A stretch of 32,000 nt of DNA from Pyrodictium abyssi (GTDB lineage: Archaea; Thermoproteota; Thermoprotei_A; Sulfolobales; Pyrodictiaceae). Both the position numbers and the translations under genes were made by a program. Shown in pieces: positions 6,013 to 24,018 of the stretch; position 1 is the stretch's first letter; the number at the start of each line of letters is the position of its first letter. The notes beneath the pieces are model-generated. The model had not been told where the DNA came from. It did no database searches and saw nothing but the letters and a program-made list of their open reading frames with translations. Where the stretch lies: assembly GCF_036323395.1 (NCBI RefSeq), contig NZ_AP028907.1:629588-661587 (forward strand). Reading direction: 5' to 3'.

Positions 6013-6028
6013 GAGGGCTGGGCACGCC

Positions 6029-8000: not shown

Positions 8001-8041
8001 GTTCTCCCGGGCTGCCTGCTTATGGTGCAATTAGTGGGGTG

Positions 8042-8293
8042 TTAGAGCTGAACCTCTATTGTGCGGGTTATAGTAGCTGCTAGGTGCTCCGGCTTGGTGT
8101 ACCACTTGTCGTAGGTGTACTTCTTGCCCTTGAAGCTTAGCTCTACTATCTCGCCCTTGTCGGAGATGTTCATAAGGGTCTCTCCTTCCTTGATGAGCTT
8201 CATCGTCGAGCCGACGACCATTACCTTTATGCCCTTCTCCTGCAGCTTGGGCTTTATCAGGTCCTTTAGCTTGGATAGGTACTCGCTGGCCAT
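8042..8293 (-). CDS. Small Lys-rich hypothetical protein (83 aa)
   Basis: ATG start preceded by GGAGGGAG (reverse complement of 8296-8307). It has its own TATA-like box and T5 terminator. It is markedly AT-richer than its surroundings. No family recognised. Confidence 0.6.
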   Translation of the reverse strand: MASEYLSKLKDLIKPKLQEKGIKVMVVGSTMKLIKEGETLMNISDKGEIVELSFKGKKYTYDKWYTKPEHLAATITRTIEVQL

Positions 8294-8336
8294 AGGCCTG
8301 CTCCCTCCATGCAGGGGGCTGGGACCCCCGCTACTG

Positions 8337-8347
8337 TATTAAATATT
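8337..8347 (-). promoter_or_regulatory. TATA-like box for the 83-aa gene
   Basis: The + strand tattaaatatt reads AATATTTAATA on the - strand, about 45-55 nt upstream of the ATG at 8293. Confidence 0.4.
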
Positions 8348-8391
8348 GCCTTACAATACCGGGGGCCACCCATGGGGCTGACCCGAGCCAG

Positions 8392-9435
8392 CTAGTCCAG
8401 TGCATCCCAGCCAGTCGTCTCCTCCACCACCCGGCGGAACGCCTTTATCGTCTTGACGGGCTCCGGGTCCAGCCCCGCGTCCAGCGCGTAGCGGACAGAG
8501 GCCAGGCCCGCCAGCCAGGTGCCCCACACCATCCGGGAGAGCATACTGCCGCCACGTAGCCTGGCGACGTGCAGGCTCGCCGGCCGGGCCAGCCCCGCAG
8601 CCTGGTGCAGCAGCGTACTCCAGGGCTCCTCCCCGGGGTCGAGCAGGAGGATCCTCGTGTCGCCGCTCCGGGCCCACGCCTCCAGCATGTTGTGGCCCGC
8701 CTCCGGCACCTGGGCCGCGTCCGCCGTAAGCTTAGCGTTCTCAGCGAGCTCGCTCCTCGTGCGGACCGCCACCGGGTAGTAGGGCTCCGGCGCGAGCACT
8801 ACCAGGCTGCCCCTGCTCCCCTGGAGCCACTCGGCCAGCTCCCTCGCCTCCGCCTCGGCCCTCTCACGCTCGCCGAGGAGCTGGATAGACTCCTCCACGT
8901 GGCCGCCAGGGACCTGGATAAGCCCCGCGGCCTTCAGGCTGCCGAGGAGCGTGTAGAAGAGCTGGGGCCACCCCGCCCGCGGGGCAGGAGCCTCCTCGAC
9001 AACAGCCACGGGCACGCCTACGCGCCGCGCCCACGCGGCGAGACGCCCGCCAGTAGTCACCGCCACGACGTAGCCGCCTAGCCGGTAGGCCCGGGAGGCA
9101 CAGTTCAGCGTCTCCCGCGTATTCCCCGAGAAGCTCACAGCGTAGACCAGGCAGCCCCGCACCCACCTCGGGGGCTCAGCCGACTTGACCACGTAGACCG
9201 GGAGCCCGCCATAAGCCGCCGACAACGCCGCCAGATAGTCGCCCGCAGCACCGCTACCACCCATGCCACACACCACGACACAATCGGCCCGCGAGTAGCC
9301 GCTCGGCAGCTCCAGCGCCAGGCCCGCCGCGTAGGCCCGCCGGGCAGGCCCAGCCCAGCCCAGGTAATACCCGTAGAACTCCCCGCGCGCCACAGCACAT
9401 GCACCCCAGGGCACCGTGCTAGAGACGCGCCACAC
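8392..9435 (-). CDS. pgi: Bifunctional phosphoglucose/phosphomannose isomerase (SIS-domain, crenarchaeal PGI/PMI type)
   Basis: 347 aa with SIS motifs VVCGMGGSGAAGDYL and AVSFSGNTRETL. Size and layout match the archaeal PGI/PMI family. The GTG start lies 1 nt after the stop of the upstream gene. Confidence 0.75.
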   Translation of the reverse strand: MWRVSSTVPWGACAVARGEFYGYYLGWAGPARRAYAAGLALELPSGYSRADCVVVCGMGGSGAAGDYLAALSAAYGGLPVYVVKSAEPPRWVRGCLVYAVSFSGNTRETLNCASRAYRLGGYVVAVTTGGRLAAWARRVGVPVAVVEEAPAPRAGWPQLFYTLLGSLKAAGLIQVPGGHVEESIQLLGERERAEAEARELAEWLQGSRGSLVVLAPEPYYPVAVRTRSELAENAKLTADAAQVPEAGHNMLEAWARSGDTRILLLDPGEEPWSTLLHQAAGLARPASLHVARLRGGSMLSRMVWGTWLAGLASVRYALDAGLDPEPVKTIKAFRRVVEETTGWDALD

Positions 9436-9436
9436 C

Positions 9437-9745
9437 CTATAGCCGGAGCCTCCGCTTCAGAGCCTCCAGCGCCTCCCCGTGCTCCCGGCTCCACCCACCC
9501 TTCCTCTCCTTCTCGCCCAGCTTCTCGGCTATCCTGTCCCGCTCGAGGGCCGGCAGCGCCCCGGTTAGCGCCCGCCACGCCTGGAGCGCCTTACCCGCAG
9601 CACTCCTCGTAAAGCCCCGGCCGAGGAACCTCAGCGCCAGCAAAGCCTCCAACAGCGCCTCCAGGACACGGGCAGAAGCATAGCCCACTAGGCTCCTCTC
9701 CGGCTTGGGAAGAGGACGCTCCAAGAACTCCACGCCTACAGCCAT
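9437..9745 (-). CDS. PaREP1-family (HEPN-like) small protein, 102 aa
   Basis: Internal ATG at 9745 of the artefactual 355-aa ORF. The motif FTRSAAGKALQAWRALTGAL matches the PaREP1 core (N-A-A-G-K-A-F-Q-A-W-K-A). A TATA-like box lies about 37 nt upstream. Confidence 0.55.
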   Translation of the reverse strand: MAVGVEFLERPLPKPERSLVGYASARVLEALLEALLALRFLGRGFTRSAAGKALQAWRALTGALPALERDRIAEKLGEKERKGGWSREHGEALEALKRRLRL

Positions 9746-9776
9746 CCCGCACCCCTGGTATAGGCGGCGCCACAAC

Positions 9777-9786
9777 GCTATATACC
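9777..9786 (-). promoter_or_regulatory. TATA-like box for the PaREP1-like/pgi transcription unit
   Basis: The + strand gctatatacc reads GGTATATAGC on the - strand, 32-41 nt upstream of the ATG at 9745. Confidence 0.4.
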
Positions 9787-9910
9787 GTAGCCCCGGCCCC
9801 GCTGCACGCGCCAAGGCACCGGGAGTGAGACGGCACCGGACTGTGGAGGTACAGCAGAAGGGGGCACACCGTGGACCGTCAGAGGCCAGAGATAGGGGAG
9901 GGCTCTGCGG

Positions 9911-9987
9911 TGGTGGGCCCGGGGGGATTCGAACCCCCGACCTCCCGGTTATCAGCCGGGCGCTCCGCCGGGCTGAGCTACGGGCCC
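9911..9987 (-). tRNA. tRNA-Ile(GAU): tRNA-Ile, anticodon GAU, CCA encoded
   Basis: Manual fold of the reverse complement: acceptor GGGCCCG/CGGGCCC, D stem GCTC/GAGC, anticodon stem CCCGG/CCGGG with loop CT-GAT-AA, variable AGGTC, T arm GGGGG-TTCGAAT-CCCCC, discriminator A, CCA. Total 77 nt. Confidence 0.93.
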
Positions 9988-10016
9988 GCCCCGAGAGGCA
10001 AGGGACAATGCCCCGG

Positions 10017-10028
10017 GGATATTTCAGC
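10017..10028 (-). promoter_or_regulatory. TATA-like box for tRNA-Ile
   Basis: The + strand ggatatttcagc reads GCTGAAATATCC on the - strand, centred about 35 nt upstream of the tRNA 5' end. Confidence 0.35.
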
Positions 10029-10177
10029 ACTACGCCCAGGACCCAGAGGTCAGCCACAGCTCCAACACCGCCCAAAGGGGGACCCGCAGGAGCCGCAGGC
10101 ATGGTGGGCCGCGGGTGGAGGAGGAGAGGCCAAAAGAGCCAGAGTAGAGGGGCGGGGGCGCGCCCTCGCCCTCCCGA

Positions 10178-11275
10178 GCTCGTCCACTCTACGCTGAAGC
10201 CCACCACTACCAGCACAGTGTCGAGGAGCACGCCCTCCCCGGCCTCGTAGTACGCGGTCACACCGTAGTAGGCCGCTGTAGCGTTCTCGAAGCGCCACGC
10301 CTCCTCATCCACGGTTATAGTGTCCTCTGGCTGCAGCCAGCCACTAGGCTTGTCAAAGCCCACCCGGGCAACCTCCTGCCCAAGCACCAGGACATCGTAG
10401 CCGGCCACTATGGCCTCGTTGACGTACAATGTAGCCGAAGGTGGATGGAATATGTAGGCCAGCGTTATGTTAAAGAGCCAGTTGCCGTCCTCGTCCATGA
10501 ACACTAGTGTTACAGTGACGTTAGTCGCGCGGGTTATCCCGTCGCTTATCGTATTCCGCTATAATCCAGGACTGGGTATGGTTCAGAAAGCTATCATACA
10601 CATAGATGTCAGCAGGCCTATCGTCGTAGCCTACTACTAGAGATAGTTATTGTCACCGGTGTGAGCGTTGGACAGCTTTACCGTAATGCCGAATCATACC
10701 ACCACTCGACAAGCCTGTCAGAGACGTTCTTGTACACGTACTCTTGTCCGTTACTCTCGTTGCGTATAACAAGGTATATCTTTGCAACCTTGTTTACGAG
10801 TTCTTGCACTATACTGTAAGCTGTATAACCTAGCTCTGGCAGGCCCTGCGACTCCACACTACTTCTTATCGCATTCTCAATCCCTTCAATCTTAGTTTCA
10901 TTGCGGATTTGGTATACAGGCTGATTATTAGGGAACTCCCCAGACTTTTTCACTCGTGTATGTGCCTTTGCCCTCGAATTCTGCTGCTTCTCTTATTATT
11001 AGTATCAGGTAGCGGAAGTACTGTTTTAGCTCTTCGGCGTTCTCTAGCTTCACCTTAAACCACGGGTTCACAGAGACCATACCCTGGGCGTCGGAGGCAG
11101 CGCCTATGGCTAGCGGTTTCACGACCTCAAAGTGCACCGGCTCTTCCCGGGCACCCGCTAGGCCAAGGGCATAGAAGACACCAGGTGTGCCCGTGAGCAC
11201 TGCTGCAAAGCCTGCTAGCAGGGCGAGGGCGGCAGCCGAGGCCATAACGCCAGCAACGGGCGGGAGCATGACCAA
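10178..11275 (-). pseudogene. Decayed paralogue of the secreted Can-like family, closest to the 389-aa member
   Basis: Homology to 24913-26082 runs through at least four frames. These are 11275-10928 (signal peptide to ...YFRYLILIIREA), 10953-10678 (...VEWWYDS), about 10650-10550 (...YDSFLNHTQSWIIAEY) and 10560-10178 (...ISDGITRATNVTVTLVFMDEDGNW...YYEAGEGVLLD...VEWTS). The family's terminal TS-TAG reads TS-TCG here, so the frame runs on through the tRNA. Confidence 0.8.
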
Positions 11276-11367
11276 TACGCGCCACAGCCCCGAGGCTCGG
11301 TGGAGCGGGCAGAAACCGAGCGCAGATGTTCTGCACCAAGTGACGCATTAAATGGGCGAGGAGATGT

Positions 11368-11378
11368 GGGAAAAACCG
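11368..11378 (-). terminator. Oligo-T terminator candidate for the 174-aa gene
   Basis: A5 at 11371-11375 on the + strand gives T5 on the coding strand, 49 nt past the stop at 11424. Confidence 0.4.
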
Positions 11379-11423
11379 TGTTAGCGGGGTTATGGGGCTC
11401 TCATATGGGCCTGGCTATGGGTG

Positions 11424-11948
11424 TTAGCTGACGCTTAGCACCTGGAAGTTGAGGATCACTGGTAGGCTGTCGAACAGCATACCCTCCTTGGCCTCGTAGT
11501 AGGCTTCAACCTTTAGCTGTATCTTGTTAGTGCTACTGTAGTCGTCGTTGTCTAGTATTATGACTGCGCTGGGCTTCTTGAGGCTTAGCACAGCCTTGGT
11601 CTCCTCAACAGTACTAGAGGCATTGCTTGTGAGTACTAGCTGTAGGTACTTGAAGTATGGCCTTAGCTGGGCAGCATTGGCTAGAGTCACCTTTAGCTTT
11701 ACTACGTTCACGTCAGTATAGTTTATTATTTTTACGTAGCCCATATCCTTGTAGCCCTGTGCGCCAGCAGCAGGAGCTATGGTGTTGTCTAGGTGGCTCT
11801 CTACGTCTATTGGCTCTTGCACTGCTTGTGCTGTGCCGGTGGCGTAGAAGCTGTTGAGCGGGCTCTGGGTGGTGGCGAAGCCAGCTAGCAGGGCGAGGGC
11901 GGCAGCCGAGGCGATGATACCCGCTATAGCTAGGGTTGTGTACCTCAT
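11424..11948 (-). CDS. Secreted filament-subunit candidate, Can-like family (174 aa; cannula CanA/B/C-like by architecture)
   Basis: Signal-peptide-like MRYTTLAIAGIIASAAALALLAGFATT, then SPLNSFYATGTA, APAAGAQG, LANAAQLRPYFKYLQL, and a C-terminal YYEAKEGMLFDSLPVILNFQVLSVS-stop. Sequons NYT and NAS are present. The start at ATG 11948 is chosen by alignment with the paralogue; the ORF is also open to ATG 11960. Confidence 0.8.
   Translation of the reverse strand: MRYTTLAIAGIIASAAALALLAGFATTQSPLNSFYATGTAQAVQEPIDVESHLDNTIAPAAGAQGYKDMGYVKIINYTDVNVVKLKVTLANAAQLRPYFKYLQLVLTSNASSTVEETKAVLSLKKPSAVIILDNDDYSSTNKIQLKVEAYYEAKEGMLFDSLPVILNFQVLSVS
11830..11948. repeat. Copy 1 of a 119-bp near-identical segment covering the 5' end of Can-like genes
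   Basis: 116/119 identical to 22053-22171. Differences are g/a at position 6, a/t at position 53, and ATG versus GTG at the start codon. Confidence 0.95.
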
Positions 11949-12012
11949 GGCTCGAGGCACCTTCCCGTCTATGTTTTTGTTCTGTCAAGTGTTATGTAGA
12001 AGTTGTTTCTGG

Positions 12013-12022
12013 CTTATAATAT
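12013..12022 (-). promoter_or_regulatory. TATA-like box upstream of the 174-aa Can-like gene
   Basis: The + strand cttataatat reads ATATTATAAG on the - strand, 65-74 nt upstream of ATG 11948. A similar element sits 55-64 nt upstream of the paralogue at 22171. Confidence 0.3.
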
Positions 12023-12104
12023 CTGTGGTCTTCGGGTATAGCCCTATAGTTCACAGTTGTTGAAGAACAGGGTGCACGGGTTGTTGCCGCGGTTTTGAGC
12101 GGCG

Positions 12105-13301
12105 TTAGGGCCTGCAGTAGCCTGGGTCTGTGGAGTAGTCTAGTATCACCTTGAAGCGATAGGGTAGGCTCGTTGTACACGTGTCTATCCTTATCTCCGC
12201 TGTGAGCGGGACTGCGGGGTAGCTGTGGCCGCCGAGCTGTATTGCGACGCAGTCTCCCTCGTCTATTGTTATCTCGGCCTCGGGGTCGGAGGGCGTCAGC
12301 TCGCCCACCATGTTGTGGTTCGCGTCGTATAGTCTTACCTGGATGCCGCATACAGCGTGGTGGGGCTGTACGCCCTCTAGCTCTATCTCGAGGTCTATGG
12401 GCGTGTCTCTGCCGTCTAGGCAGCCGCAGTCCCGGTCGAGGATCACGTACAGCGTGTAGTTGGCTGCTACTATGCACCCGGATGGGCCGCAGCTTGTCTC
12501 CGAGCAGTCTGGGTAGATGCGCACATGCACATGTGTCCTGCCGTAGAGTATCCAGGCCTCGGGGCACTGCTGGGTGCTCGTGGTCGTCGTGCTTGTTGTG
12601 GTGCTCGTCTTTGTGGCCGTGCTGGTCGTAGTGGTGTTTACCGGCGGTGCTGTGACGGTTACCGTCGTGGTTACTGTCACCGTGGCTGTGCCGTTGGGCT
12701 GTGTCGTGGTTGTCGTGTAGGTGTACGTGTAGGTCTGGTTGTAGCTGGCTGGGCCTAGGTAGATTGTTCCCGTCTCCTGGTCGGCGACCGTCACTAGGAG
12801 TGGCACTGCTACTGTGGCGCTAGTGTTGCAGTCCCGTGGCTCGTAGTAGATCCTCGCCGCGAGGACCGCGTAGCGTGTTGTGCCGTTCTCTGCCCAGCTG
12901 CCTGCGTCGAGGACTATTGCTGCCGAGGGGTCCTGGAGCGACATGGTTGCGAGCAGCTCGTTGTTCACCGTGTTGAATACCTCGATGTGGAGCGCCCGGA
13001 GCCTGCCTGCCAGCATGTCCAGGTTGGCTATGGATAGTACTAGTCTCGCAACGTCGACTCCCGCTGCAGGCTCTATCCGGAGCCACTCGCCTACTTCTAG
13101 GCTCTGGGGGCCACATGCCCCGGGGGCTATCTGGAGGATAGGGGTCTCCAGTACCGATACCTTTACCGGCTTGTAGGGGGCGCTCACCTCGCCGGTGGCG
13201 TAGAACCCTGTGAGAGGGCTAACCGTGGTAGCGAAGACTGCCGCTAGGGCCAGGGCTAGCGTAGAGGCCAGTAGAGCTGCGAGGCCGAGACGGCGGTCCA
13301 T
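12105..13301 (-). CDS. Can-like family protein fused to a Thr-rich linker and a Cys-rich C-terminal domain (398 aa)
   Basis: MDRRLGLAALLASTLALALAAVFATTVSPLTGFYATGEV aligns with the family leader. SIANLDMLAGRLRALHIEV, SLQDPSAAIVLD and ARIYYEPRD align with family motifs. A Thr-rich linker (12570-12740) and a 10-Cys domain (12108-12564) follow. The start at ATG 13301 is chosen by alignment; the ORF is open to 13394. Confidence 0.75.
   Translation of the reverse strand: MDRRLGLAALLASTLALALAAVFATTVSPLTGFYATGEVSAPYKPVKVSVLETPILQIAPGACGPQSLEVGEWLRIEPAAGVDVARLVLSIANLDMLAGRLRALHIEVFNTVNNELLATMSLQDPSAAIVLDAGSWAENGTTRYAVLAARIYYEPRDCNTSATVAVPLLVTVADQETGTIYLGPASYNQTYTYTYTTTTTQPNGTATVTVTTTVTVTAPPVNTTTTSTATKTSTTTSTTTTSTQQCPEAWILYGRTHVHVRIYPDCSETSCGPSGCIVAANYTLYVILDRDCGCLDGRDTPIDLEIELEGVQPHHAVCGIQVRLYDANHNMVGELTPSDPEAEITIDEGDCVAIQLGGHSYPAVPLTAEIRIDTCTTSLPYRFKVILDYSTDPGYCRP
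12570..12740 (-). repeat. Low-complexity Thr-rich linker coding region
   Basis: Encodes YNQTYTYTYTTTTTQPNGTATVTVTTTVTVTAPPVNTTTTSTATKTSTTTSTTTTST. The ACN-codon periodicity is visible as gtgg/gtcg repeats on the + strand. Confidence 0.9.
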
Positions 13302-13403
13302 GGACGTGAGCACCCTCGCGGAGCGCCTAGGGGCCACGGCCCCCTCTGGGGCAGGGTTTGCTCTACCCCGGGGGCCCCGTGCTGGGCTCCACACAGCCAG
13401 ATA

Positions 13404-13412
13404 CTTATATAG
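13404..13412. promoter_or_regulatory. TATA-like element in the divergent intergenic region
   Basis: cttatatag is near-palindromic and lies between the divergent Can-like fusion gene (start 13301) and the ATPase gene (ORF from 13531). It could serve either direction. Confidence 0.3.
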
Positions 13413-13530
13413 TCCTGGCCAGGGCCAATGTACCCTAGGACCGGTACTCTAGACACCGCCATGGAGCCAAGCATAGCCGTGGCTGTCCTAGCCCCGGCCT
13501 CCGGGGCTTCCTCGAGGCCCCTGCTGAGAG

Positions 13531-14688
13531 GTGCCTGGCATGCGGCTACCGCTACCGCTGCCCCGGCGTATCAAGATACGGCGCGAGCCCCGGCTAGCAG
13601 ACATCTGGATCATGCAGCGCTGGCCTATTGAGTCGCTCGACGCCTGCAAGATGGCGGACCCCCCGTTCGCCGACATAAACGGCGTGGGCGCTGTGCTGGA
13701 GAGGCTCGTGGACCAGGTCGTGGCGGGGCGGGGCGGCATATACATAATAGTCGGGGCCCCGGGCTCCGGCAAGTCCACGCTCCTCAAGACCCTGCATAAC
13801 CGGCTCCGCCGGGGCGGTATATACTCCCTCTACATGGATACCGCTGGGCGGAGCCTCGACGACTTCGTGGCTAGCCTCTGCTCTATCCTCGGCTGCCGCG
13901 AGGTCTCGCTCGACTCGCTCATGGAGAGGATACGCGAGAAAGCCGCGGAAGAGGGCACCATGGCCCTGCTCCTGGACGACATCGACCGCATATCCGGGGG
14001 CAACATGGACGATGTGGGCAAGCTGCTTACGGGCCTCACTGCTGTCCAGCGGGAGATCGGCCGCGGGCTCTTCATAGCCTTCAGCATGGCCCGTGAGAGC
14101 CTGGCAAGGCTCACCCTAGACCCCCTGATGAGGGGCCTCGTCAAGTCCTACATGGAGGTTATAGACCTTGACGAGCACCTCGTGAACTCCCCCACCGATC
14201 TCTCCAGGCTCCTCTACGCCCACTTCGAGCGGGCCCGGCCGCCCAACCCAGACCCCAAGGCCGCTGCTATACTCAACCGGTACCCGCTCCACCCTATCCG
14301 CGACCAGAACGTCATAAACATGCTCTACGAGATACTCGGCACAGATACGCCGCGCATGTACCTCGAGAAGGTGGACGAGCTGCTAAGGATAGCCATACGC
14401 GCCCGCTCACGCGTCGTGAGCATAGCACACCTAAACATACTAGCGAGGAGGCTCATCCAGGCCCGGCGCGAGGCTGTGCCCATTACCCAGATACAGGTCA
14501 TGCTGGTCCGCCGCTACGTGAACGGCCTGATAGCCGGCGGCCTCGTAGTGCTAGGCACAGTTGCCATAACCCTGGCGGCGATAAACCTAGTCCCGCCGGG
14601 CCTCAAGCTGCCCTACGTAGTGGTCGGCCTAGTGCTGATGCTCGCCGGTATACTGGTGCACATGAGGTCCATAGCTAGGCCGGGCTGA
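13531..14688 (+). CDS. Membrane-anchored P-loop NTPase (AAA_22/ORC-like ATPase domain plus two C-terminal TM helices)
   Basis: Walker A IIVGAPGSGKSTLLKTL and Walker B MALLLDDIDRI. The C-terminus has two hydrophobic helices, LIAGGLVVLGTVAITLAAINLV and PYVVVGLVLMLAGILVHM. The true start may be ATG 13612 or ATG 13651. Confidence 0.7.
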   Translation: MPGMRLPLPLPRRIKIRREPRLADIWIMQRWPIESLDACKMADPPFADINGVGAVLERLVDQVVAGRGGIYIIVGAPGSGKSTLLKTLHNRLRRGGIYSLYMDTAGRSLDDFVASLCSILGCREVSLDSLMERIREKAAEEGTMALLLDDIDRISGGNMDDVGKLLTGLTAVQREIGRGLFIAFSMARESLARLTLDPLMRGLVKSYMEVIDLDEHLVNSPTDLSRLLYAHFERARPPNPDPKAAAILNRYPLHPIRDQNVINMLYEILGTDTPRMYLEKVDELLRIAIRARSRVVSIAHLNILARRLIQARREAVPITQIQVMLVRRYVNGLIAGGLVVLGTVAITLAAINLVPPGLKLPYVVVGLVLMLAGILVHMRSIARPG

Positions 14689-14750
14689 GCAGCCGGGGCC
14701 CTATTTACGGGCCAGCCCATGCTAGATAGAACCGTGTCCGGGGGTCTGCT

Positions 14751-15332
14751 GTGAGCGAGTACCTCAACGTAGTGGTACCGGAGGAGAGGGGCGGTATACC
14801 CCCCGCCCTGGTGGCGCTGGTAGCGCTAGCAGCCATAGTGGCCGCTGGGCTCAGCGTCTCTGGGCAGCTGCCGCGCTTCGCCGTCATCCAGACGACGAGT
14901 ATGGTCCCTACACTGGTTCCGGGAGACGTGGTGATGATAACGAAGGTTGACCCGATGTCGATCGATGTCGGCGACGTGATAGCCTTCAACCTTGTAGCCT
15001 ACGAGGTGGACGAGCAGGGGCGGCCCATCGACATGAAGGGCATCAAGATAACAGTGCACCGCGTGATAGAGAGGAAGATGATCAACGGCCGGCTCTACTT
15101 CCGCACCCAGGGCGATAACAACCCCGTGCCAGACCCCTGGCTCGTACCCGCCTCGGGCGTGCTGGGCAAGGCGGAGAAGGTTGCTAGCCTAGGCACCTTT
15201 GGCCTGGTACTGACCAACCCCATAGGCAGGGTGTTCGTGATAATGATAATGCTGTCGTCACTAGTCCTGCTGGGCAGCACTATGTGGAGCTATAGTAAGG
15301 GTATACGCGAGGATCTTGAGAACTACCTCTAG
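14751..15332 (+). CDS. Type I signal peptidase, archaeal/ER (Sec11/SipW-like, Ser-His) type
   Basis: Catalytic-Ser box IQTTSMVPTLVPGDVVMI, His box TVHRVIER and FRTQGDNNPVPDP box. N- and C-terminal TM helices are present. GTG start. Confidence 0.85.
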   Translation: MSEYLNVVVPEERGGIPPALVALVALAAIVAAGLSVSGQLPRFAVIQTTSMVPTLVPGDVVMITKVDPMSIDVGDVIAFNLVAYEVDEQGRPIDMKGIKITVHRVIERKMINGRLYFRTQGDNNPVPDPWLVPASGVLGKAEKVASLGTFGLVLTNPIGRVFVIMIMLSSLVLLGSTMWSYSKGIREDLENYL

Positions 15333-15384
15333 GTCTAGGCGCATCTAGGGCCCATAGGGGCGGTAGAGGGGCAGAGGAGGACGG

Positions 15385-15400
15385 TGGGGAAAAGAGGGGA
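15385..15400 (-). terminator. Pyrimidine-rich tract with T4, terminator candidate for the 146-aa gene
   Basis: The - strand reads CCCCTCCCCTCTTTTCCCC, with T4 at 15390-15393, 62 nt past the stop at 15455. Confidence 0.3.
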
Positions 15401-15454
15401 GGGGCGGCAGCCGGGGCCAGGGGGTTCCCTGGAGGGGCCGGCAGGGGGCGGGGC

Positions 15455-15895
15455 CTAGCCTGTGCTGCTGTCTTGCGTGTCCTCTAGGAAGGGCTTGCAG
15501 AGTGTCAGGTTCTCGGCTATGGTCTGGTTTAGGCTGTAGAGGGTCTTGCAGAGGTTCTCTAGCTCTTCGCCGCTCATGGTTACCTTGACGCCGTTTATCT
15601 CTAGGACTACGTTGCCGTCGCCGCCGCGGTAGAGGTTTATGGCGATGTTGTTGGAGCGGTTTACCAGCTCCACTATATCCTGGTGTATTTCGCGGACTAG
15701 CGTCTCGTTGAGAGTGCCCCTGGAGAGGGCAGTGGCGACCTTGGTGAGGTCCTGGCCCACCTGGTTAACGACAGTTGTGGCGTACTCGGCTATAGCCGTT
15801 ACCATGGCCATCGCCACGACGAAGGTCAGCAGGCCCGACAGCATAGCCTCCTTTAGCACCCGGTTCACCGTCTCTAGATACCCACCGTAAGGCAT
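15455..15895 (-). CDS. Small N-terminally anchored protein with conserved Cys pair, paralogue 1 (146 aa)
   Basis: TM helix LSGLLTFVVAMAMVTAIAEYA. The C-terminal ...EELENLCKTLYSLNQTIAENLTLCKPFLED aligns with 16817-17197, sharing C-x16-C and an NLT sequon. Confidence 0.65.
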   Translation of the reverse strand: MPYGGYLETVNRVLKEAMLSGLLTFVVAMAMVTAIAEYATTVVNQVGQDLTKVATALSRGTLNETLVREIHQDIVELVNRSNNIAINLYRGGDGNVVLEINGVKVTMSGEELENLCKTLYSLNQTIAENLTLCKPFLEDTQDSSTG

Positions 15896-15935
15896 CTATA
15901 ATACTGTTGTTTCAAATGCACTATGTAATGGAGGC

Positions 15936-15943
15936 GATATATC
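15936..15943 (-). promoter_or_regulatory. TATA-like box for the 146-aa gene
   Basis: gatatatc lies 41-48 nt upstream of ATG 15895, within a short AT-rich patch (15896-15950). Confidence 0.35.
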
Positions 15944-16040
15944 CATGGCTGATACGGGCCGTGGAGCACGCTACCCATGTGCTGCGTGGAAGCGTTTTTC
16001 TACACGATAAGCCCCGGCGTACGGGATCCAGGGCGGCGGG

Positions 16041-16208
16041 GTGCCGGGGCGTACACCTCTACATAGGAGTGGGCAGCGTCGAGTAGACCAGCGGGTTGCA
16101 CTAACACTTATCGTTGTAGGAGGCTTGCTCACCCCGTTCACGCCGTTTATAGGGGTAATCGTGATAGCTGCAGGAGCTGTTCTCCTAGCGATGCACGGGG
16201 ACTACTAG
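16041..16208 (+). CDS. Candidate 55-aa small membrane protein, below the ORF-track cutoff
   Basis: A GTG 16041 in-frame ORF ending at TAG 16206-16208. It encodes ...RVALTLIVVGGLLTPFTPFIGVIVIAAGAVLLAMHGDY, which has two short hydrophobic segments. There is no other support. Confidence 0.2.
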   Translation: MPGRTPLHRSGQRRVDQRVALTLIVVGGLLTPFTPFIGVIVIAAGAVLLAMHGDY

Positions 16209-16231
16209 CCCCGGGGGGCGTAAACAGCCGT

Positions 16232-16801
16232 TTAGACGCGGAAGCCTAGCTCCCGTAGCTTGTTTACTACAAAGCCCCTGTCCTCCTCGGGTAGCAGCTC
16301 TATCCCCTGCTTGATTATCCTCTCGTCCACCTTCAGCTTGCCCTCCTCTATGTACTCGCGTATTATCCTTAGGTCCTCTGTGTCCGCCTCGCGGGCCGCC
16401 TTAGCCTTGAGGACTATGTAGTCCTCTAGCCTTAGGAACCGGGCCTCGACACCGCCTATCTTCTTCTTGGGCGCATTCTCGAGCATCTCGGGGGGTATGT
16501 AGTAGTCGTGAATGTTCTCGTAGAACTCTACGACGACCTCCTCACCGCTCGGGACACGGGCTATGAACTTGGGGGTGCCGAGCGCGGTGTAGGCTACCTG
16601 CCAGCCCTCCTCCTCGGCTACCGCGTGGTACTTCTCCTCCTCTATCAGGGGGCTGGGCTCGAGGACGAACACGTCCACGTCGTCCTCCAGCCTGCGGCGG
16701 CGCAGCTCCAGCTCAACCACAGTGCTGCCCACGACGACGCCGCGGATGCCGTGCCTCTGTAGCCTGGATAGCAGCCACGCCAGGTCCTCCAGCGTGTACA
16801 C
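16232..16801 (-). CDS. Nucleotidyltransferase-fold protein (minimal NTase-like, 189 aa)
   Basis: VVVGSTVVELELRRRRLEDDVDVFV fits the G-S...D-x-D pattern of the pol-beta NTase superfamily, followed by a helical C-terminal half. It starts 15 nt after the upstream small membrane protein gene, so the two are probably co-transcribed. Confidence 0.5.
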   Translation of the reverse strand: MYTLEDLAWLLSRLQRHGIRGVVVGSTVVELELRRRRLEDDVDVFVLEPSPLIEEEKYHAVAEEEGWQVAYTALGTPKFIARVPSGEEVVVEFYENIHDYYIPPEMLENAPKKKIGGVEARFLRLEDYIVLKAKAAREADTEDLRIIREYIEEGKLKVDERIIKQGIELLPEEDRGFVVNKLRELGFRV

Positions 16802-16816
16802 CGGGGGCCACCAGGG

Positions 16817-17197
16817 CTAGCCGGCCAGCCCCTCGGACGTTATAACGTCTCTGCAGGGGGTCAGGTTGAGCGCGAGCCCGGGGTCGACGGCGTAGAGGGA
16901 CCAGCAGAAGAGCCTCAGCTGGGTCTCGTTGAGCACGAGCCTCTCGCCGCCGACGTAGACCGGGGTGCCGTTCAGCGCCTCCACGGCGCCCCGCAGGGCC
17001 GCCTCCTCCAAGTCGGCGAGGTCGCGCTGCAGCCTATCGAGGAGGCTCCAATCGGGCTCCCCCTCGGCCACGGCCTCGACCACGGCCATGAGGTCGGGCA
17101 GGACGCGGTCCACCAGGATACCCGCCACAAGCAGCGACGCGGCCAGGAGGGCTAGCGCGGGGGCGGCAGCCAGGGCTCCGCTGGCCACAGGGAGCAC
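16817..17197 (-). CDS. Small N-terminally anchored protein with conserved Cys pair, paralogue 2 (126 aa)
   Basis: Hydrophobic N-terminus ALAAAPALALLAASLLVAGILV. The C-terminal ...TQLRLFCWSLYAVDPGLALNLTPCRDVITS aligns with 15455-15895. Confidence 0.6.
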   Translation of the reverse strand: MLPVASGALAAAPALALLAASLLVAGILVDRVLPDLMAVVEAVAEGEPDWSLLDRLQRDLADLEEAALRGAVEALNGTPVYVGGERLVLNETQLRLFCWSLYAVDPGLALNLTPCRDVITSEGLAG

Positions 17198-17260: not shown

Positions 17261-17428
17261 CTACGCCCATATAACCGCGGGGCCCGGGGGAGGCCTGGGG
17301 CCGGGCCTCCCCGGCCTCCTGCGCCCGCCGCGCCTGGTTCCGCGGAGCCGCTGGATCGCCGCCACTATGGCTGCGAGCGCTACGAGGCTCAGGAGGAGGG
17401 CTAGCAGCACCCGGTTGCCGGCGAGCCT
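17261..17428 (-). other. Out-of-frame (+1) membrane anchor plus basic tail downstream of the 1260-aa gene
   Basis: Translation by hand in the +1 frame gives ...APAPGLAERLAGNRVLLALLLSLVALAAIVAAIQRLRGTRRGGRRRPGRPGPRPPPGPAVIWA-stop (TAG at 17261-17263). This frame is open from about 17513. Confidence 0.6.
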
Positions 17429-17429
17429 C

Positions 17430-20400
17430 TCAGCCAGCCCCGGCGCGGGGGCCCGCGTAGTCGTCGCCGGCGGCCGGGGGGGCGGCTGTGGTGGCTGTGG
17501 CGTTCGCGGGGGTCACGTTGCCCGGTGCCGTGACGTTGGCTGGGGCTAGCTGGGCGCCCGGCCCCGCGGCTAGTACGCCGCTAGCACGGGCCAGTGTGAA
17601 GGACTCTCGGGCGCCGTCGGGCACGGCGCGCAGTACTGCCTCGTAGCTGGCCGTCGCGTTGCCCCTCAGCTGTATCTTCACCCTCATGGAGGCTATGTCG
17701 CCGGGCCGTAGCGCGTCAACCCTCATGACCGCCATGCTGGTGGTGTAGCTGCCCGGCTCGGCGTCGAGCACCTCTACCCCGCTGGGGAACTTTACGCTGA
17801 CAACCACGTTCCTGAGGTCTATCGAGTCCAGGTTCGCGGCGCTGACCTCTACTATGGCGCGGTCCCGGTACCTCTCCACCTCCTTGACCTCGAGGGCCAC
17901 GTGGGGCACCTTCACCCTCACCGGGACCGTGGCCAGCGTGTTGCCGTCGAGCCTGAGCACTATGTAGACCGTTGTCTCGCTCCCCAGCGGCGCGCCGGGG
18001 GAGACGTGTAGCGTAGCCCACCTGGTGGTGAACTCTCCGGGCTCAAGGTCCGCCCGCGTCGCCGGCAGGAAGAGCCTGGCTATCGAGTCGTTGCCGTTGA
18101 CCGGGACTATCTCCGCGCCCTCTATCCTCATACCAGAGGCCACGTCTATCCTCACGTCCACCTCGCTCCCGGGCGGCGCCGCGACGTAGCCCGGCGTCAC
18201 AGTGACCTCCACTGTGCGGCGGAGGAGCTCTAGCACTGGTATCCTGGCTACACGGTACTCCTTGATCAGGTACTGGCCGGTCTCGTCGTAGACCAGGAGC
18301 CTTGCGTCAAGCGTGTCCAGGGGCTCCAGCTTGACGGTGTCGAGGTTTACGCTTATGTCGAGCGTGCGGTGGCTCCGAGCCGGGAGCGCCACCGTCTCGG
18401 CGTAGTCGTATATCGTGCACGCCTTCACGTCGACGCAGTCGCCCTGCCCCTTGACGAGCACAAGCCGCGCTAGGAACACGGCGTCGCGGTCCTCTGGGTT
18501 GTAGAAGGACAAGCTTATGGTAAGCCCTCTCCTCGCTATGTCTACCTCCACGTCCTCTAGCCGGGGCTCCACCATGACGGAGCGTAGCTCCACGCCACTG
18601 GTGCTTGTTGCTATAACTTTGCCGTTCGGGTCGAGCACGTGTATGCTCATAGTGTAGACGCCGGGGTAGGCGGTCGGCGGCACCGGTATGTTGACCACGA
18701 AGCTAGCGCTGCCGCCCAGGGGCACCAGCTCCTCCCCGGACTCGGCCTCGCCCAGACCCTCTATCGAGACCCTGACCCTGAGCCGGGCGTCAGTGTTACC
18801 CGTGTTAGCCACCTTAACCTCTACGCGGAAGCTCTTACCCACCACCGGGAGGTCTAGCACACGCACCTCCTCCACGGTGGCAGAGACCACTGGCTCCACT
18901 GTCAGCAGGTTGTGGAGGCTCCAGGAGGCGTAGGGCATCCCCGCTATGTAGAGGACTGCGCGGGCGTCGTAGCTCCCTGCCGCGGCGTCGCCCGGGACCT
19001 GTATGGGGACCTGGACCAGGTTAATGCCGGGGAAGAGTGGCTCCTCAACGCTGTAGCTCCGGCCGAGCAGCTGTACCTCCAGCCGGCTCTGGACTGAGCC
19101 CTCGCCGTCCAGCCGGAGCTTCACCGAGACCAGGGCCTGGCCGCCGGGCTTCACGCTCCCCGGCGACGCGCTGTAGTCCTCCAGGGATATGCTGTACGAG
19201 ACTACCTCTAGCGCGGCCTCGGCGCGGGAGGCCTCGTAGAGGTCGTCGCCCCTGAACTCCACGGCGAGGCTGTGCCTGCCCACGCCGAGCCACGAGGTGT
19301 CGAACTCAACCACTGCCACGCCGTCTCGGCCGGTGCGGGCGCTGCCCACGAGCTTCCCGTCTACGTAGAAGCTCAGGGTGCGGCCCACGAGCGGGCCCCC
19401 GGAGACCCCGTCAACCAGCCTGGCCTCGACGTGGGCGAGGCTGCCGCGCGACACCACGAAGCTCTGAGCCTCTATCTTGCTCGGCCTCTTCAGCACCTCG
19501 ACTGTCTTGCTCTTGACGCCGGTTAGCCCCGTGTCGTCCACGACTGTGAGCGTGACGTTGTAGACACCGGGCTTCTCGAACACGTGGGTAACTATCGCGC
19601 CCTCGGCCACCGTGCCGTCGCCGAACTCCCAGCGGTACCCAGTGATGTTGCCGTCGGGGTCGTAGGAGAGGAGCCCGTAGAACGTGACGTTGACGCCCCA
19701 GTAGGGCTGCCGCGGCGAGAACCAGAACCCAGCGACCGGGGGCCTGCCCTCGACGCACCAGACCGGGCGCGAATCCAGCCAAGGCTCGTAGTACTGCCTG
19801 GGGTTAGGCCGCCCCTCAAGCCACGGCATCACTATAGGGCTGCCCTTGCCCTCCGGGTTGCCCGTAGCCCGGGGGCCCGAGGGGTCACCCCACCAGTTGT
19901 GCCCCGCGTAGACGTAGCCCTCCTCAACCTTCAGCCCGTACTCGGCGCCCTCCAGGCAGCTGTAGCTCACCACCGCGGTAGAGTCCACAACACTCTTCAC
20001 GTAGACCGCCTGGGGGCCCGAGACCCGGGAGTAGAGCACCTCTAGCCTCGCCCTGCCACCCACGCCGCCCTTCTCGCCGTCAATAATCAGGCTCTCCAGC
20101 TGGCACCTATAGATCCTCATCACGGTGGACTGGCCGTAGAGGCCCCAGTCCTCGCGCACCCAGTTATCCGCAATGCTCTCGCCCCGGACCAGAACCCTCC
20201 CCATAACGGTGTTGCTCGCAACAAGACTCGACTGGTCCAGGCCGCGGCCCGAGGAGGTGCCGTTGTAGAGCCCATAGCCGTGGATAGTGAGGCCCTCCAG
20301 CGTGGAGTCTGTGATGCTCATCCACGAGGATAGCAGCCCCTCAGGCCCCTCTACCACTACGCTGCCCAGCCTCACACGCTCCAGCACCAGGCTACTACGG

Positions 20401-21478: not shown

Positions 21479-22171
21479 TTAGCCTACCTGCAGTACCTGG
21501 AAGTTGAGTATTACTGGTAGGCTGTCGAATAGCATGCCCTCCCTAGCCTCATAGAAGGCCTTGACCGTTAGTACAGCGAATGTAGCGTCATTGCCCATGC
21601 CATTGAATACGCCACTCTTAGTTATCTGCCAGCTGCCAGTTGCGTTGCCTATTTCTATCTTATCGCTGGGTGAACCTGGTACCCAGAATGTTACGTTTGC
21701 TGGTATGCTTGCAGCTGTCTCGTTCAGCTTAGCAATATTGAACAAGTCTTCAGCGTCAAGTATTATTACGGCTTTAGGCTTCTGTAGGGAGAGGACAGCT
21801 TTGATCTCTGAGTAGTTGCCTATAGCGGACTCGTTTGTGTTGAAGGCGCTTGTTATCTGTAGCTGTAGGTACTTGAAGTATGGCCTTAGCTGTGCGGCAT
21901 TGGCTATTTTTACTAGGAGCTTTACGTCGTTTACGTCGGCGCGTACTGGCACTAGCACAAAGCCCATGTCCTCGCTGCCCTGGGCGCCGGCGGCGGGGGC
22001 TATGTTGGTGTTGAGCTTGCTCACTACGTCTATTGGCTCGCTTACCGCCTCTGCTGTACCGGTGGCGTAGAAGCTGTTGAGCGGGCTCTGGGTGGTGGCG
22101 AAGCCTGCTAGCAGGGCGAGGGCGGCAGCCGAGGCGATGATACCCGCTATAGCTAGGGTTGTGTACCTCAC
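21479..22171 (-). CDS. Secreted filament-subunit candidate, Can-like family (230 aa)
   Basis: GTG start. The first 40 aa are identical to the 174-aa paralogue. Motifs APAAGAQG, IANAAQLRPYFKYLQL and a C-terminal FYEAREGMLFDSLPVILNFQVLQVG-stop are present. Five sequons: NES, NYS, NET, NVT, NAT. Confidence 0.85.
   Translation of the reverse strand: MRYTTLAIAGIIASAAALALLAGFATTQSPLNSFYATGTAEAVSEPIDVVSKLNTNIAPAAGAQGSEDMGFVLVPVRADVNDVKLLVKIANAAQLRPYFKYLQLQITSAFNTNESAIGNYSEIKAVLSLQKPKAVIILDAEDLFNIAKLNETAASIPANVTFWVPGSPSDKIEIGNATGSWQITKSGVFNGMGNDATFAVLTVKAFYEAREGMLFDSLPVILNFQVLQVG
22053..22171. repeat. Copy 2 of the 119-bp near-identical 5' gene segment
   Basis: See 11830-11948. Confidence 0.95.
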
Positions 22172-22225
22172 TTTTTACGCACCCCTACTCTGGCTCTGGT
22201 TCGTGTCTACTCCCGTTTCATGCAA

Positions 22226-22235
22226 CTTATATATT
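22226..22235. promoter_or_regulatory. TATA-like element in the divergent region between the 230-aa gene and the PP2C-like gene
   Basis: cttatatatt lies 55-64 nt from GTG 22171 (- strand) and about 55-65 nt from the candidate starts at 22287-22299 (+ strand). Confidence 0.35.
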
Positions 22236-22289
22236 GTTTCTCTGCGCTGTCAAGCTGGTATATGTGTAACGTGTGTTATTATTGGCTTG

Positions 22290-23162
22290 GTGCGGTGGGT
22301 GTTTAGGCTCCGGGCGGGGGGAGCGCTACGAGGGGCGCTGGCTGTGGCCTGGCGTGCCTGGGTAGCTGTATCCAATGCTGTCCACTTCGAGGATGATGCT
22401 GGGCTCTGGGTTGATGGGGACCGCGGCGCTGTGGCGGTGGCGGATGGGGTCTCGATGTCCCGGGGCGGGGGCGCCTCGTTCCTGGCCGCGTGGGGGTTCG
22501 CTGCGCTCTGCCGGGCCCTGCTGCCGGACTGGAGGGGGAGCCTGGCGGGGGCCGCGCAGCGGTGCCTAGAGCTGCTGGACCGCGCCGCCCGGGAGGCGCT
22601 GGCGCTCGACGCCGCGGCTGTGGCGGAGGCGAAGCAGCGGTACTACCGCGGCTGCGGCTCTCCCTGCACCCGGCCCCCGGGCCTCGCCGAGCTAGAGGCC
22701 CTGAGGCCCCTGGAGCCCGGGGGGAGGGGCGCCGAGGCGAAGCCGAGCTCGACGCTCCTCGCAGCGCTCCTGGGCCCCGGGGGCCGGGCCGCGCTGGTGC
22801 TAGCCGGCGACGGCGCGGTGGTAGCGACCACGGGGGGCCGGGAGGACACCTGGCTCCTCTGGGGCGCGCTGCCCCAGTTCTACGAGGGGAGCCGGGTCGC
22901 CCGCTTCCTGGAGGTCGGCGGCGGGCTCCGGGGCGAGCCGGTGGTGCTGGAGACCATCCTGCCCCGGGGCACCCTGCTAGCCCTGGCGACGGACGGTGTG
23001 GACCCCGCGGCGCTCGCCGAGGAGCTGGTAGAGCTGGCCAGGCGGGGCATCCCCGAGCCCGCCGCCGAGAACCCGGCCGGCTACCTGCTACGCCGCATAG
23101 AGGAGCGCACCGGGGGCCTAGAGGACGACGCCACCCTCGCGCTGGTGGAGTGGACGGGCTAG
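22290..23162 (+). CDS. PP2C-like (PP2C_2/SpoIIE-type) protein phosphatase
   Basis: AVAVADGVSMSRGGGASFLAAW is the first metal-binding D-G motif region. LLALATDGVDP and the near-C-terminal LEDDATLALVEW are also present. The upstream part of the 361-aa ORF (22077-22289) is antisense to the Can-like gene and was discarded. Candidate starts are TTG 22287, GTG 22290 and GTG 22299. Confidence 0.55.
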   Translation: MRWVFRLRAGGALRGALAVAWRAWVAVSNAVHFEDDAGLWVDGDRGAVAVADGVSMSRGGGASFLAAWGFAALCRALLPDWRGSLAGAAQRCLELLDRAAREALALDAAAVAEAKQRYYRGCGSPCTRPPGLAELEALRPLEPGGRGAEAKPSSTLLAALLGPGGRAALVLAGDGAVVATTGGREDTWLLWGALPQFYEGSRVARFLEVGGGLRGEPVVLETILPRGTLLALATDGVDPAALAEELVELARRGIPEPAAENPAGYLLRRIEERTGGLEDDATLALVEWTG

Positions 23163-23223: not shown

Positions 23224-24018
23224 GTGGCTGGCGCGGTGGACCGGAGGGCTCTCGGGGAGGCGCTGCTGGAGCTGCTTGAGGAGGACCGGGAGTTCCGCCA
23301 CGCTGTGATGGGGCTGCTGGGCTACCGCGAGGTACTGGAGAGGATAACCAGGCTTGAGGAGCGGTTCGCGAGACTAGAGGAGAGGTTCGCCAAGCTGGAG
23401 GAGGAGTTCCTGGAGCTGCGGAGGGCCCAGCAACGCCTCGAAGAGAGGCAGCAGCGCCTAGAGGAGAGGTTCCAGAAGCTAGAAGAAAGATTCGCAGAGC
23501 TAGAGGAGCACTTTGCCCGGCTGGAGGAGCGCTTCGCCAAGCTGGAGGAGGAGTTCCAGAAGCTAGAGGAGAGGCAGCAGCGCCTAGAGGAGAGGATGGC
23601 TAGGCTAGAGGAGGAGATGAGGGAGACGCGGAGGGTGCTGAACACGATCGCGCACAGGTTCGGGCTGCTCACGGAGACGGGGTTCCGCGAGGCCATGCGG
23701 TACGTGGTCGAGGAGGCTCTCGGCGCCGCCCGGGTCGAGAGGCTCTCCCTCCGGGACGAGGAGGGCCTAGTCTACGGCTACCCCGCCACCGTGGACATAG
23801 ACCTGGTGGTGAGGGACGGGGAGCACATAATCGTCGAGGTCAAGTCCAGGGTGGACCCGGGGGACGTGGCGGTCCTCGCCCGCAAGGCCAGGCTCTACGA
23901 GAGGGAGACCGGCACCAGGCCCCGGGCAGTGATACTGGGCGGCTACGTGGCCCCCTCGGCCTACGAGGCCGCAGCCCGGCTGGGCGTCACGGTCAGGCCC
24001 TACCTCAGGGAGGACTAA
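23224..24018 (+). CDS. Coiled-coil protein with C-terminal PD-(D/E)XK nuclease-fold domain
   Basis: GTG start. An approximately 90-aa heptad array (LEERFAKLEEEF...) is followed by ...ATVDIDLVVRDGEHIIVEVKSRV, the canonical D...E-x-K core. Confidence 0.65.
   Translation: MAGAVDRRALGEALLELLEEDREFRHAVMGLLGYREVLERITRLEERFARLEERFAKLEEEFLELRRAQQRLEERQQRLEERFQKLEERFAELEEHFARLEERFAKLEEEFQKLEERQQRLEERMARLEEEMRETRRVLNTIAHRFGLLTETGFREAMRYVVEEALGAARVERLSLRDEEGLVYGYPATVDIDLVVRDGEHIIVEVKSRVDPGDVAVLARKARLYERETGTRPRAVILGGYVAPSAYEAAARLGVTVRPYLRED
23344..23619 (+). repeat. In-frame 21-nt (heptad) tandem periodicity with an internal duplication of about 147 nt
   Basis: RLEERFAKLEEEF(L/Q)...QQRLEER occurs twice, at aa 50-78 and aa 99-124 of the 264-aa protein. 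Confidence 0.85.

Follow-up and report, generated by a model that had tools for sequence, protein, structure and literature searches.

Two paralogous small proteins of predicted membrane location near the cannula genes of Pyrodictium abyssi

Cannulae are unique archaeal nanotubes, the structure of which has been solved recently; they end in the pseudo-periplasm, their premature assembly is thought to need regulation, and the cannula loci have been described as having no dedicated signal peptidase or accessory proteins (PMC12518558). How the tubes start, are anchored and are restrained are questions on which the locus described here may bear; it lies in a 32,000-nt stretch of the Pyrodictium abyssi AV2 chromosome (NZ_AP028907.1, positions 629,588 to 661,587; hereafter the window). 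In it, two genes for small paralogous proteins, A and B, flank a nucleotidyltransferase (NTase) gene, close to the canX operon on one side and to a giant surface protein gene on the other. In TasA-type loci, accessory proteins (TapA of Bacillus subtilis, AbpB of Pyrobaculum calidifontis and the Tafi anchor) are encoded among the filament genes together with a signal peptidase I (SPase I), an arrangement similar to that of A and B, which are likewise predicted to be membrane-anchored and extracytoplasmic and, by analogy, could tie a donor-strand filament to the cell. However, A and B resemble these anchors in neither sequence nor predicted fold, possess no jelly-roll or valid donor strand, have a much smaller ectodomain of about 100 amino acids (aa), and are not co-transcribed with subunit genes.

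Two other kinds of described system are relevant. Spc3 is a type II single-pass protein with a glycosylated ectodomain, and A resembles Spc3/SPCS3 and the DUF5305 proteins in its predicted type II topology and in adjoining a Sec11/SipW-type SPase I gene, but its predicted ectodomain is mostly helical, it is without a Pfam match, and neither B nor the homologue in Hyperthermus is encoded beside a peptidase. SPase accessory proteins of the DUF5305 type have been proposed for the archaeal AbpX and Tafi loci (bioRxiv 10.64898/2026.01.04.697558). The gene between A and B belongs to PF09970 (DUF2204), a family of archaeal NTases with a Pol-beta fold, with which it shares full length, motifs, a size of about 190 aa and a predicted cytoplasmic location; nothing sets it apart from the family, and no conserved partner gene was seen. 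As in MNT-HEPN and AbiE pairs, a small Pol-beta-fold NTase gene is found 15 nt downstream of a small gene; that upstream gene, B, however, encodes a membrane protein without a HEPN or winged helix-turn-helix (wHTH) signature, is missing where relatives keep the NTase, and has no PADLOC match. As judged from sequence, A and B may be lineage-specific accessory membrane proteins of a surface-filament locus that the literature has not considered.

The chromosome was identified from A, which matched PABY_06940 at 100% identity, and from B, for which a P. abyssi protein gave 99%. The three open reading frames (ORFs) were where a preliminary description of the region had placed them, and it had correctly quoted the C-terminal modules of A and B and their C-x16-C spacing (Cys116/133 in A and Cys98/115 in B). 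It had also taken the two small proteins to be paralogous, a claim that hinged on the significance of their similarity, and we found this similarity to be significant: BLASTP aligned A and B at 24% identity over 93 aa (E=3e-9), and the Smith-Waterman score of the full proteins was 106, compared with a mean of 28 +/- 4.8 for shuffled sequences (z=16), while the ectodomains alone gave z=13, the observed score being reached in 0 of 2000 shuffles. The Cys pair, an LY dipeptide and an A-x-N motif were invariant in all six clusters of the family. The NLT sequon is common to both P. abyssi paralogues, as described, but varies in the family, in which the Asn alone is invariant, the counterparts being NLA in clusters P0003 and P0005/P0007 and NMT in P0002. 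The duplicated family with its conserved Cys pair is thus real, but the duplication is not a recent local event: identity is 33-36% between A and the Hyperthermus protein, compared with 25% between B and A and 21% between B and the Hyperthermus protein. B is therefore an old or fast-evolving member rather than a recent local duplicate. The two genes have GC contents of 71.7% (B) and 56.9% (A), with third-position values (GC3) of 0.91 and 0.78, respectively. Compared with its counterpart in a close relative (contig L004, see below), A had a ratio of nonsynonymous to synonymous substitution rates (dN/dS) of 0.145, with values of 0.09-0.11 for its neighbours, and is under purifying selection.

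Each protein has one N-terminal hydrophobic segment (residues 17-35 of A and 11-29 of B) followed by an acidic flank, and the ectodomains are acidic (pI 4.1-4.7) and mainly helical in AlphaFold2 (AF2) models of low confidence (mean predicted local distance difference test scores, pLDDT, of 60 for A and 58 for B), in line with what had been read from the sequence. The true starts are likely to be internal to the longest ORFs, at M18 (position 15844; 129 aa, GenBank) or V10 (15868; 137 aa, RefSeq) in A and at V4 (17188; 123 aa, as annotated) in B. Both models show the same succession of elements: the transmembrane (TM) helix runs into a long helix, which is followed by another helix, by a short beta-hairpin or meander and by three short helices holding both Cys residues; by the models, the Cys pair would connect helices one and three of this C-terminal module. 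The A ectodomain has four N-x-S/T sequons, and all three Asn residues of the B ectodomain are in N-x-T (shuffle mean 0.18, P<0.0005); the other family members have three to five sequons each (shuffle P=0.04-0.08). The acidic flank after the TM segment and the enrichment in sequons favour predicted N-in, C-out glycoproteins, in agreement with the extracytoplasmic location originally suggested. Taken together, the family, the paralogy and the topology of A and B can be accepted with high confidence.

The family proved to be very narrow. We searched 5.8 billion clustered proteins with single sequences and with profiles, and 1.84 billion representatives exhaustively with a hidden Markov model (HMM); only six clusters emerged: A, B, two Pyrodictium-like metagenome proteins 84-86% identical to A (P0002 and P0003), and two near-identical proteins of the metagenome-assembled genome (MAG) Hyperthermus sp. 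DSY37, 33-36% identical to A (P0005 and P0007). In vitro, cannula-like tubes are formed by Hyper2, a protein of the DSY37 MAG whose paralogue Hyper1 was also chosen for study (PMC12518558); because DSY37 encodes Hyper1 and Hyper2, the family co-occurs with cannula genes at the level of the genome. Specificity for this locus, as once proposed, applies within P. abyssi but not beyond it, since the Hyperthermus homologue sits elsewhere, adjoining an HTH_20 regulator, a multi-TM protein, an ABC-2 transporter and a tRNA-Asn gene. A genome scan matched the Hyperthermus MAG only, and two metagenome scans, one for the A family and one for the AAA ATPase of the locus, gave no matches; for P0001 and P0004, no contig was on record by exact-sequence look-up. 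When the A model was compared with the PDB by Foldseek, the lowest E value was 0.43, and a match to TolR (probability 0.6, 48 residues) was rejected as noise, the model having a pLDDT of 60. Also rejected as a homologue was P0006, a repetitive bacterial protein of 3183 aa (E=2.4e-7 summed over seven repeats), the Pfam hits of which are artefacts of summing a generic beta-hairpin-helix motif over its repeats. The family is real and new, a narrowly distributed sequence family without known relatives.

Concerning the Hyperthermus contigs themselves, the tRNA-Asn gene lies 3' of the small-protein gene (L002, 8690-8765; end of L003), and contigs of different assemblies all stop exactly at the 3' end of this tRNA (L002, and the single sequence represented by L001, L003 and L005 under JGI and NCBI identifiers), as might be expected if a variable or repeated region lay past this point.

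The gene between A and B, described as NTase-like from a GS...DDVDV motif, was confirmed as a member of PF09970, which it matches over the full length of the model (1-181/181; 230.1 bits versus a gathering threshold of 20.3; E=1.9e-68). It carries the putative catalytic Pol-beta motifs hG[GS] and [DE]h[DE]h, as VVVGS (24-25) and EDDVDV (39-44), with a candidate third carboxylate in VVVEF. The start of the NTase gene is exactly 15 nt past the stop codon of B, as reported. Compared with L004, its dN/dS was 0.09, and no match to it was found in PADLOC, NCBIfam or the PDB sequences. The suspected HEPN partner was not encountered: neither a HEPN motif (Rx4-6H) nor an AbiEi-type wHTH adjoins the NTase, the neighbour of which differs among contigs, being B in the window, the giant gene in L004 and an unrelated 202-aa ORF in L012.

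Comparison with close relatives (85-93% nucleotide identity) showed that this NTase separates two variable blocks. Contig L004, a 9.3-kb Logan contig with approximately 89-90% nucleotide identity to the window, has the order giant protein, NTase, small opposite-strand ORF, A, signal peptidase, AAA ATPase and Can-like gene. B is missing from it, and the family HMM found no remnant of B there; identity to the window falls away between approximately 17670 and 16802 and is abruptly regained at the start codon of the NTase. Three short contigs (L006-L008) repeat the order opposite-strand ORF, A and signal peptidase. Four contigs holding members of the 90%-identity cluster of the NTase (L009-L012) differ: they carry a spacer of approximately 0.57-0.59 kb in place of a 6.2-kb block of the window, and no can gene, AAA ATPase, signal peptidase, A, B or giant protein was found in them. 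In L012, the order is 202-aa ORF, NTase, a 573-nt AT-rich spacer (10570-11143), tRNA-Ile, PGI, hydantoinase B, hydantoinase A and ABC transporter, and the flanking backbone is 93% identical to window positions 3569-9379, with 85.6% identity for the NTase; L009-L011 end shortly past the start of PGI. Homology of the window to these four contigs stops exactly at both ends of the NTase coding sequence and at the tRNA. Together with L004, these comparisons define window positions 9991-16231 as a variable block between tRNA-Ile and the NTase, in which A, the canX operon, SPase I, the AAA ATPase and the 55-aa ORF are gained or lost as one; the Can-like fragments and the gene for the 429-aa Can-like protein are also located in it. 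A second variable block, made up of B, the giant protein gene and the CanA-like gene, lies across the NTase from the first. Since two variable surface-gene blocks flank the NTase, the layout in which the paralogues enclose it is incidental. The three-gene unit that had been envisaged thus breaks down, with the NTase adjoining tRNA-Ile and PGI in contigs without can genes, A or B, B missing from L004, and A transcriptionally separate. The NTase is most probably a backbone gene unrelated to A and B, a bystander, which removes a false lead. A search at the far end of the 6.2-kb block gave no direct repeats of tRNA-Ile that resemble att sites, and the block is therefore described as variable, its status as a mobile element not being supported. 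The can genes have 52-55% GC, compared with 64-70% in the flanks.

The arrangement of the genes in the window also separates A from B. The preliminary description had noted that A, the NTase and B are co-directional with the giant protein gene; all are indeed on the minus strand, but between the NTase and A comes the 55-aa ORF, which is on the opposite strand, and a TATA-like element (tattata), kept in L004 and L006, is directly upstream of A, which places A outside the transcription unit of B and the NTase. A similar sequence (taatata) is found approximately 37 nt upstream of B, and in P. abyssi B and the NTase probably share a transcript. The 55-aa ORF had 91% aa identity to its counterpart in L004, with an in-frame 3-nt indel and a dN/dS of 0.13; it had no Pfam match, and its exact sequence with this start was absent from the protein collection. 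We rejected the possibility that it is part of a frameshifted 101-aa gene, which could be annotated in L004: in the upstream 45 codons almost every nucleotide difference alters the amino acid (80% aa identity versus 93% nucleotide identity), and these codons are probably non-coding promoter DNA.

Based on these data, we propose a model, which we favour only tentatively and rate as a whole at somewhat below an even chance, in which A and B are old paralogues of an orphan family restricted to the Pyrodictiaceae and act at the membrane. Each would be a small single-pass N-in/C-out membrane protein with a short or no cytoplasmic N-terminus, one TM helix and an acidic, N-glycosylated ectodomain of approximately 100 aa, composed of helices, a short beta-hairpin and a C-terminal helical module in which the C-x16-C pair probably staples two helices. 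A would travel with the canX operon, SPase I, the membrane AAA ATPase and the 55-aa protein, and B with the giant protein and the CanA-like gene. The ectodomains would be located in the pseudo-periplasm, where the ends of the cannulae embed, and A and B might serve as membrane-proximal docking, anchoring or assembly-modulating partners of the secreted Can subunits or of the giant protein, rather than as chaperones, ushers or polymerising subunits. Because A is gained and lost with the canX operon, SPase I and the AAA_22 ATPase, this context is the best functional lead. That A and B are functionally tied to the biogenesis of cannulae or surface proteins is nevertheless doubtful, though possible.

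Several points weigh against this model. Cytoplasmic disulfides are common in hyperthermophilic Crenarchaeota, so the Cys pair alone is no proof of a location outside the cell. No functional clue to A or B was obtained, the matches in Pfam, NCBIfam, PADLOC and PDB profiles all being below threshold. B is dispensable in the close relative represented by L004, and A is monocistronic and convergent with the signal peptidase gene, which leaves co-regulation with the can genes unsupported. In Hyperthermus, no Can gene was found within 8 kb upstream of the homologue, on a contig that ends at the tRNA, and no homologue was found among the annotated proteins of other Pyrodictiaceae, by inference including the cannula-forming P. 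occultum, which indicates that the family is not universally needed for cannulae. The SPase I near canX may be either a dedicated or a housekeeping copy, and the synteny was drawn from close relatives only. Furthermore, CanA and Hyper2 polymerise in vitro on Ca2+ alone (PMC12518558).

The strongest competing explanation is that A and B are lineage-specific membrane proteins unrelated to the cannulae and the giant protein, with a function in, for example, envelope stress, signalling or as a transport accessory, and that their position near the can genes reflects a build-up of accessory genes in a recombination-prone region by tRNA-Ile. We regard this as a substantial possibility, though not the likelier side of the question. 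It would account for the setting of the Hyperthermus homologue, with its regulator, multi-TM protein, transporter and tRNA-Asn and no Can gene visible, for the differing presence of B in close relatives, for the apparent pseudogenes or frameshifts in the region, and for the lack of a detected homologue in the other Pyrodictiaceae proteomes searched, but not so readily for the presence of the family in the genomes of proven cannula formers, namely P. abyssi and the DSY37 MAG, the inheritance of A in one 6.2-kb block with the canX operon, SPase and AAA genes, or the location of both P. abyssi copies less than 6 kb from Can-family genes. By analogy with Spc3, A might instead be an accessory subunit of the adjacent SPase I and help to process Can precursors, as its predicted single-pass topology and glycosylated ectodomain would allow and as its adjacency to the SPase gene in all three Pyrodictium-type contigs (the window, L004 and L006) might suggest. 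These contigs, however, are too closely related for the adjacency to be informative, the two genes are convergent and not co-transcribed, B and the Hyperthermus homologue have no such neighbour, no Pfam match to SPC22 or DUF5305 was found (E<=0.1), and the predicted ectodomain is mostly helical, with no beta-sandwich, all of which makes this role distinctly improbable.

We consider it highly improbable that B, the NTase and the 55-aa TM protein constitute a toxin-antitoxin or defence module, either an NTase with membrane effectors or an MNT-HEPN remnant. The 15-nt gap and probable co-transcription of B and the NTase in P. abyssi, the minimal Pol-beta-fold nature of the enzyme and the small two-TM gene abutting it are all compatible with such a module, but it is largely refuted by synteny, the NTase retaining its sequence and position in L004, where B is missing, and in L009-L012, which have neither B nor A nor the 55-aa ORF. 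In addition, among these proteins PADLOC matched only A, below threshold and at chance level (E=0.015), with nothing for the NTase, B or the 55-aa ORF, no Rx4-6H HEPN motif is present in A, B or the 55-aa protein, and the nearest HEPN-like element, a PaREP1 fragment, is 6.5 kb away, past the can operon. We give equally little credence to A and B being minor constituents of the cannulae that imitate the donor strand of Can proteins and act as membrane-anchored initiators or terminators, as TapA does for TasA. The juxtamembrane sequence of A, EYATTVVNQV, resembles the CanX donor strand, FYATGTAQAV, and both directly follow a hydrophobic N-terminal segment; however, the central Gly is kept in all Can-like donor strands and is Thr in A, B lacks such a motif, AF2 shows the segment of A as a helix continuous with the TM segment, and neither protein has a jelly-roll domain. 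The importance of this Gly is illustrated by G13A, which cripples Hyper2 assembly (PMC12518558). The A/B family profile also failed to find any Can ORF of the window, and the converse comparison, by phmmer with Can proteins as queries, was confined to L006-L012.

The roles of chaperone, usher, primer or minor subunit raised in the preliminary description are supported by neither fold nor sequence. A and B are unlikely to be minor subunits of the Can/TasA superfamily, as no jelly-roll was detected by Pfam, PDB or profile searches and the low-confidence AF2 models are mostly helical. They do not resemble chaperones of the chaperone-usher type, which have two Ig-like domains and approximately 200 aa, the ectodomain here being approximately 100 aa, predicted to be mostly helical and without a Pfam match. 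A class III (pilin-like) signal peptide is also unlikely to be the explanation for the N-terminus, in which an invariant Gly precedes the TM segment but position -2 is Ser or Ala (LSG, ASG or LAG) and not charged; no prepilin peptidase or pilus ATPase gene was found in the window.

Returning to the proposed membrane-proximal role of A and B, the context may have a wider meaning. SPase I and the AAA ATPase are encoded 1.6-3.4 kb from canX in the same variable block, and, with members of the orphan family of predicted glycoproteins included, such genes reach distances of approximately 2.8-5.2 kb from canX, contrary to the published description of cannula loci. It is conceivable, although we think it unlikely, that the canX island encodes an overlooked membrane-side apparatus for cannulae consisting of A and B, SPase I, the TM-anchored AAA ATPase and the 55-aa protein. 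If so, A and B would position, nucleate or restrain the Ca2+-driven polymerisation of Can proteins in the pseudo-periplasm, and the published view of an accessory-free assembly in vivo and of loci without a dedicated peptidase would have to be revised. The genes of the canX block thus provide a short list of candidates for cannula biogenesis, and the wider locus is of more interest than the three genes originally singled out.

The features of the locus are listed in Table 1. Native cannulae of P. abyssi AV2 have the canX product as their major subunit (PDB 9H8B), residues 5-178 of the ORF aligning to residues 1-174 of that structure (E=1e-106). In the numbering of the cannula paper supplement, the canX operon is #670-672 and WP_338251966.1 is #680, which places the region of A, the NTase and B between them; the CanA-like ORF of the window is probably WP_338251966.1.

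Table 1. Positions of genes and other features in the window
Feature	Position	Strand	Identifiers and remarks
A, small paralogue, longest ORF 146 aa	15455-15895	(-)	PABY_06940 / BES81127.1 / WP_338251956.1
Conserved 55-aa ORF, basic N-terminus and hydrophobic hairpin (2 TM)	16041-16208	(+)	divergent from A, convergent with NTase
NTase, 189 aa, PF09970/DUF2204, predicted cytoplasmic	16232-16801	(-)	PABY_06950, WP_338251960.1
B, small paralogue, longest ORF 126 aa	16817-17197	(-)	PABY_06960, WP_338251962.1
49-aa ORF, TM helix and basic tail, the C-terminal anchor of the giant protein out of frame	17261-17410	(-)	L004 comparison
Giant secreted surface protein, 1260 aa	17430-21212	(-)	signal peptide, PKD, Big_3_5, DUF11/CARDB-like Ig, glycosylated Thr/Pro/Ala linker
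CanA-like cannula subunit, 230 aa, loop insertions	21479-22171	(-)	CanA 7UII E=1e-62; CanX 9H8B E=9e-64
ER/archaeal-type signal peptidase I	14751-15332	(+)	WP_338251954.1, PABY_06930; convergent with A; TIGR02228, Peptidase_S26
AAA_22/AAA_16 P-loop ATPase, two C-terminal TM helices	13531-14688	(+)	upstream of signal peptidase gene
Can-like protein, 429 aa, Thr-rich linker and Cys-rich C-terminal extension	12105-13394	(-)	probably WP_338251950.1
canX, 178-aa ORF, protein start M5	11424-11960	(-)	WP_338251948.1; PDB 9H8B match
Further Can-like coding sequence, split over at least 3 frames	10150-11275	(-)	pseudogene or assembly errors
tRNA-Ile(GAT), one boundary of 6.2-kb variable block	9911-9987	(-)	
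6.2-kb variable block: can operon, AAA, SPase I, A, 55-aa ORF	9991-16231		in P. abyssi and L004

The signal peptidase I matched TIGR02228 with 77.7 bits, above the cut-off of 51.85, and contains the Ser/His boxes, with the motifs TSMVPT, VHRV and GDNN; it adjoins A in L004 and L006 as well. The AAA ATPase had a dN/dS of 0.10 compared with L004. In the giant protein gene, the sequence for the C-terminal anchor (17261-17432) is out of frame with the 1260-aa ORF and follows homopolymer runs of C7, C5 and G4. The corresponding gene in L004 (3900-4244 compared) is a continuous ORF of 1313 aa with an intact TM anchor and basic tail, and the break in the window may be either a real frameshift, in which case the protein would be released instead of anchored, or an assembly error.

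Among the Can-like genes, the 429-aa protein has a Cys-rich C-terminal extension of approximately 170 aa (10 Cys) without a Pfam match, which is unusual for a cannula-type subunit. In the split Can-like gene, the signal peptide and donor strand are encoded at 10931-11275, the middle at 10681-10992 and the C-terminus (AYYEAGEGVLLDTVLVVVGFSV) near 10200; a long ORF at 9437-10504 was rejected as an artefact running across the tRNA-Ile gene. Divergent from the CanA-like gene is a gene for a PP2C/SpoIIE-like phosphatase with N-terminal TM segments (22077-23162, plus strand), followed by one for a coiled-coil protein with DUF3782 and PD-(D/E)XK domains (23224-24018, plus strand); these two proteins could be regulatory or unrelated. 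Between tRNA-Ile and PGI, at window positions 9380-9910, we observed a PaREP1-like (HEPN-related) fragment, and the stretch from tRNA-Ile to PGI is approximately 425 nt longer than that in L012, representing a further small indel at the tRNA.

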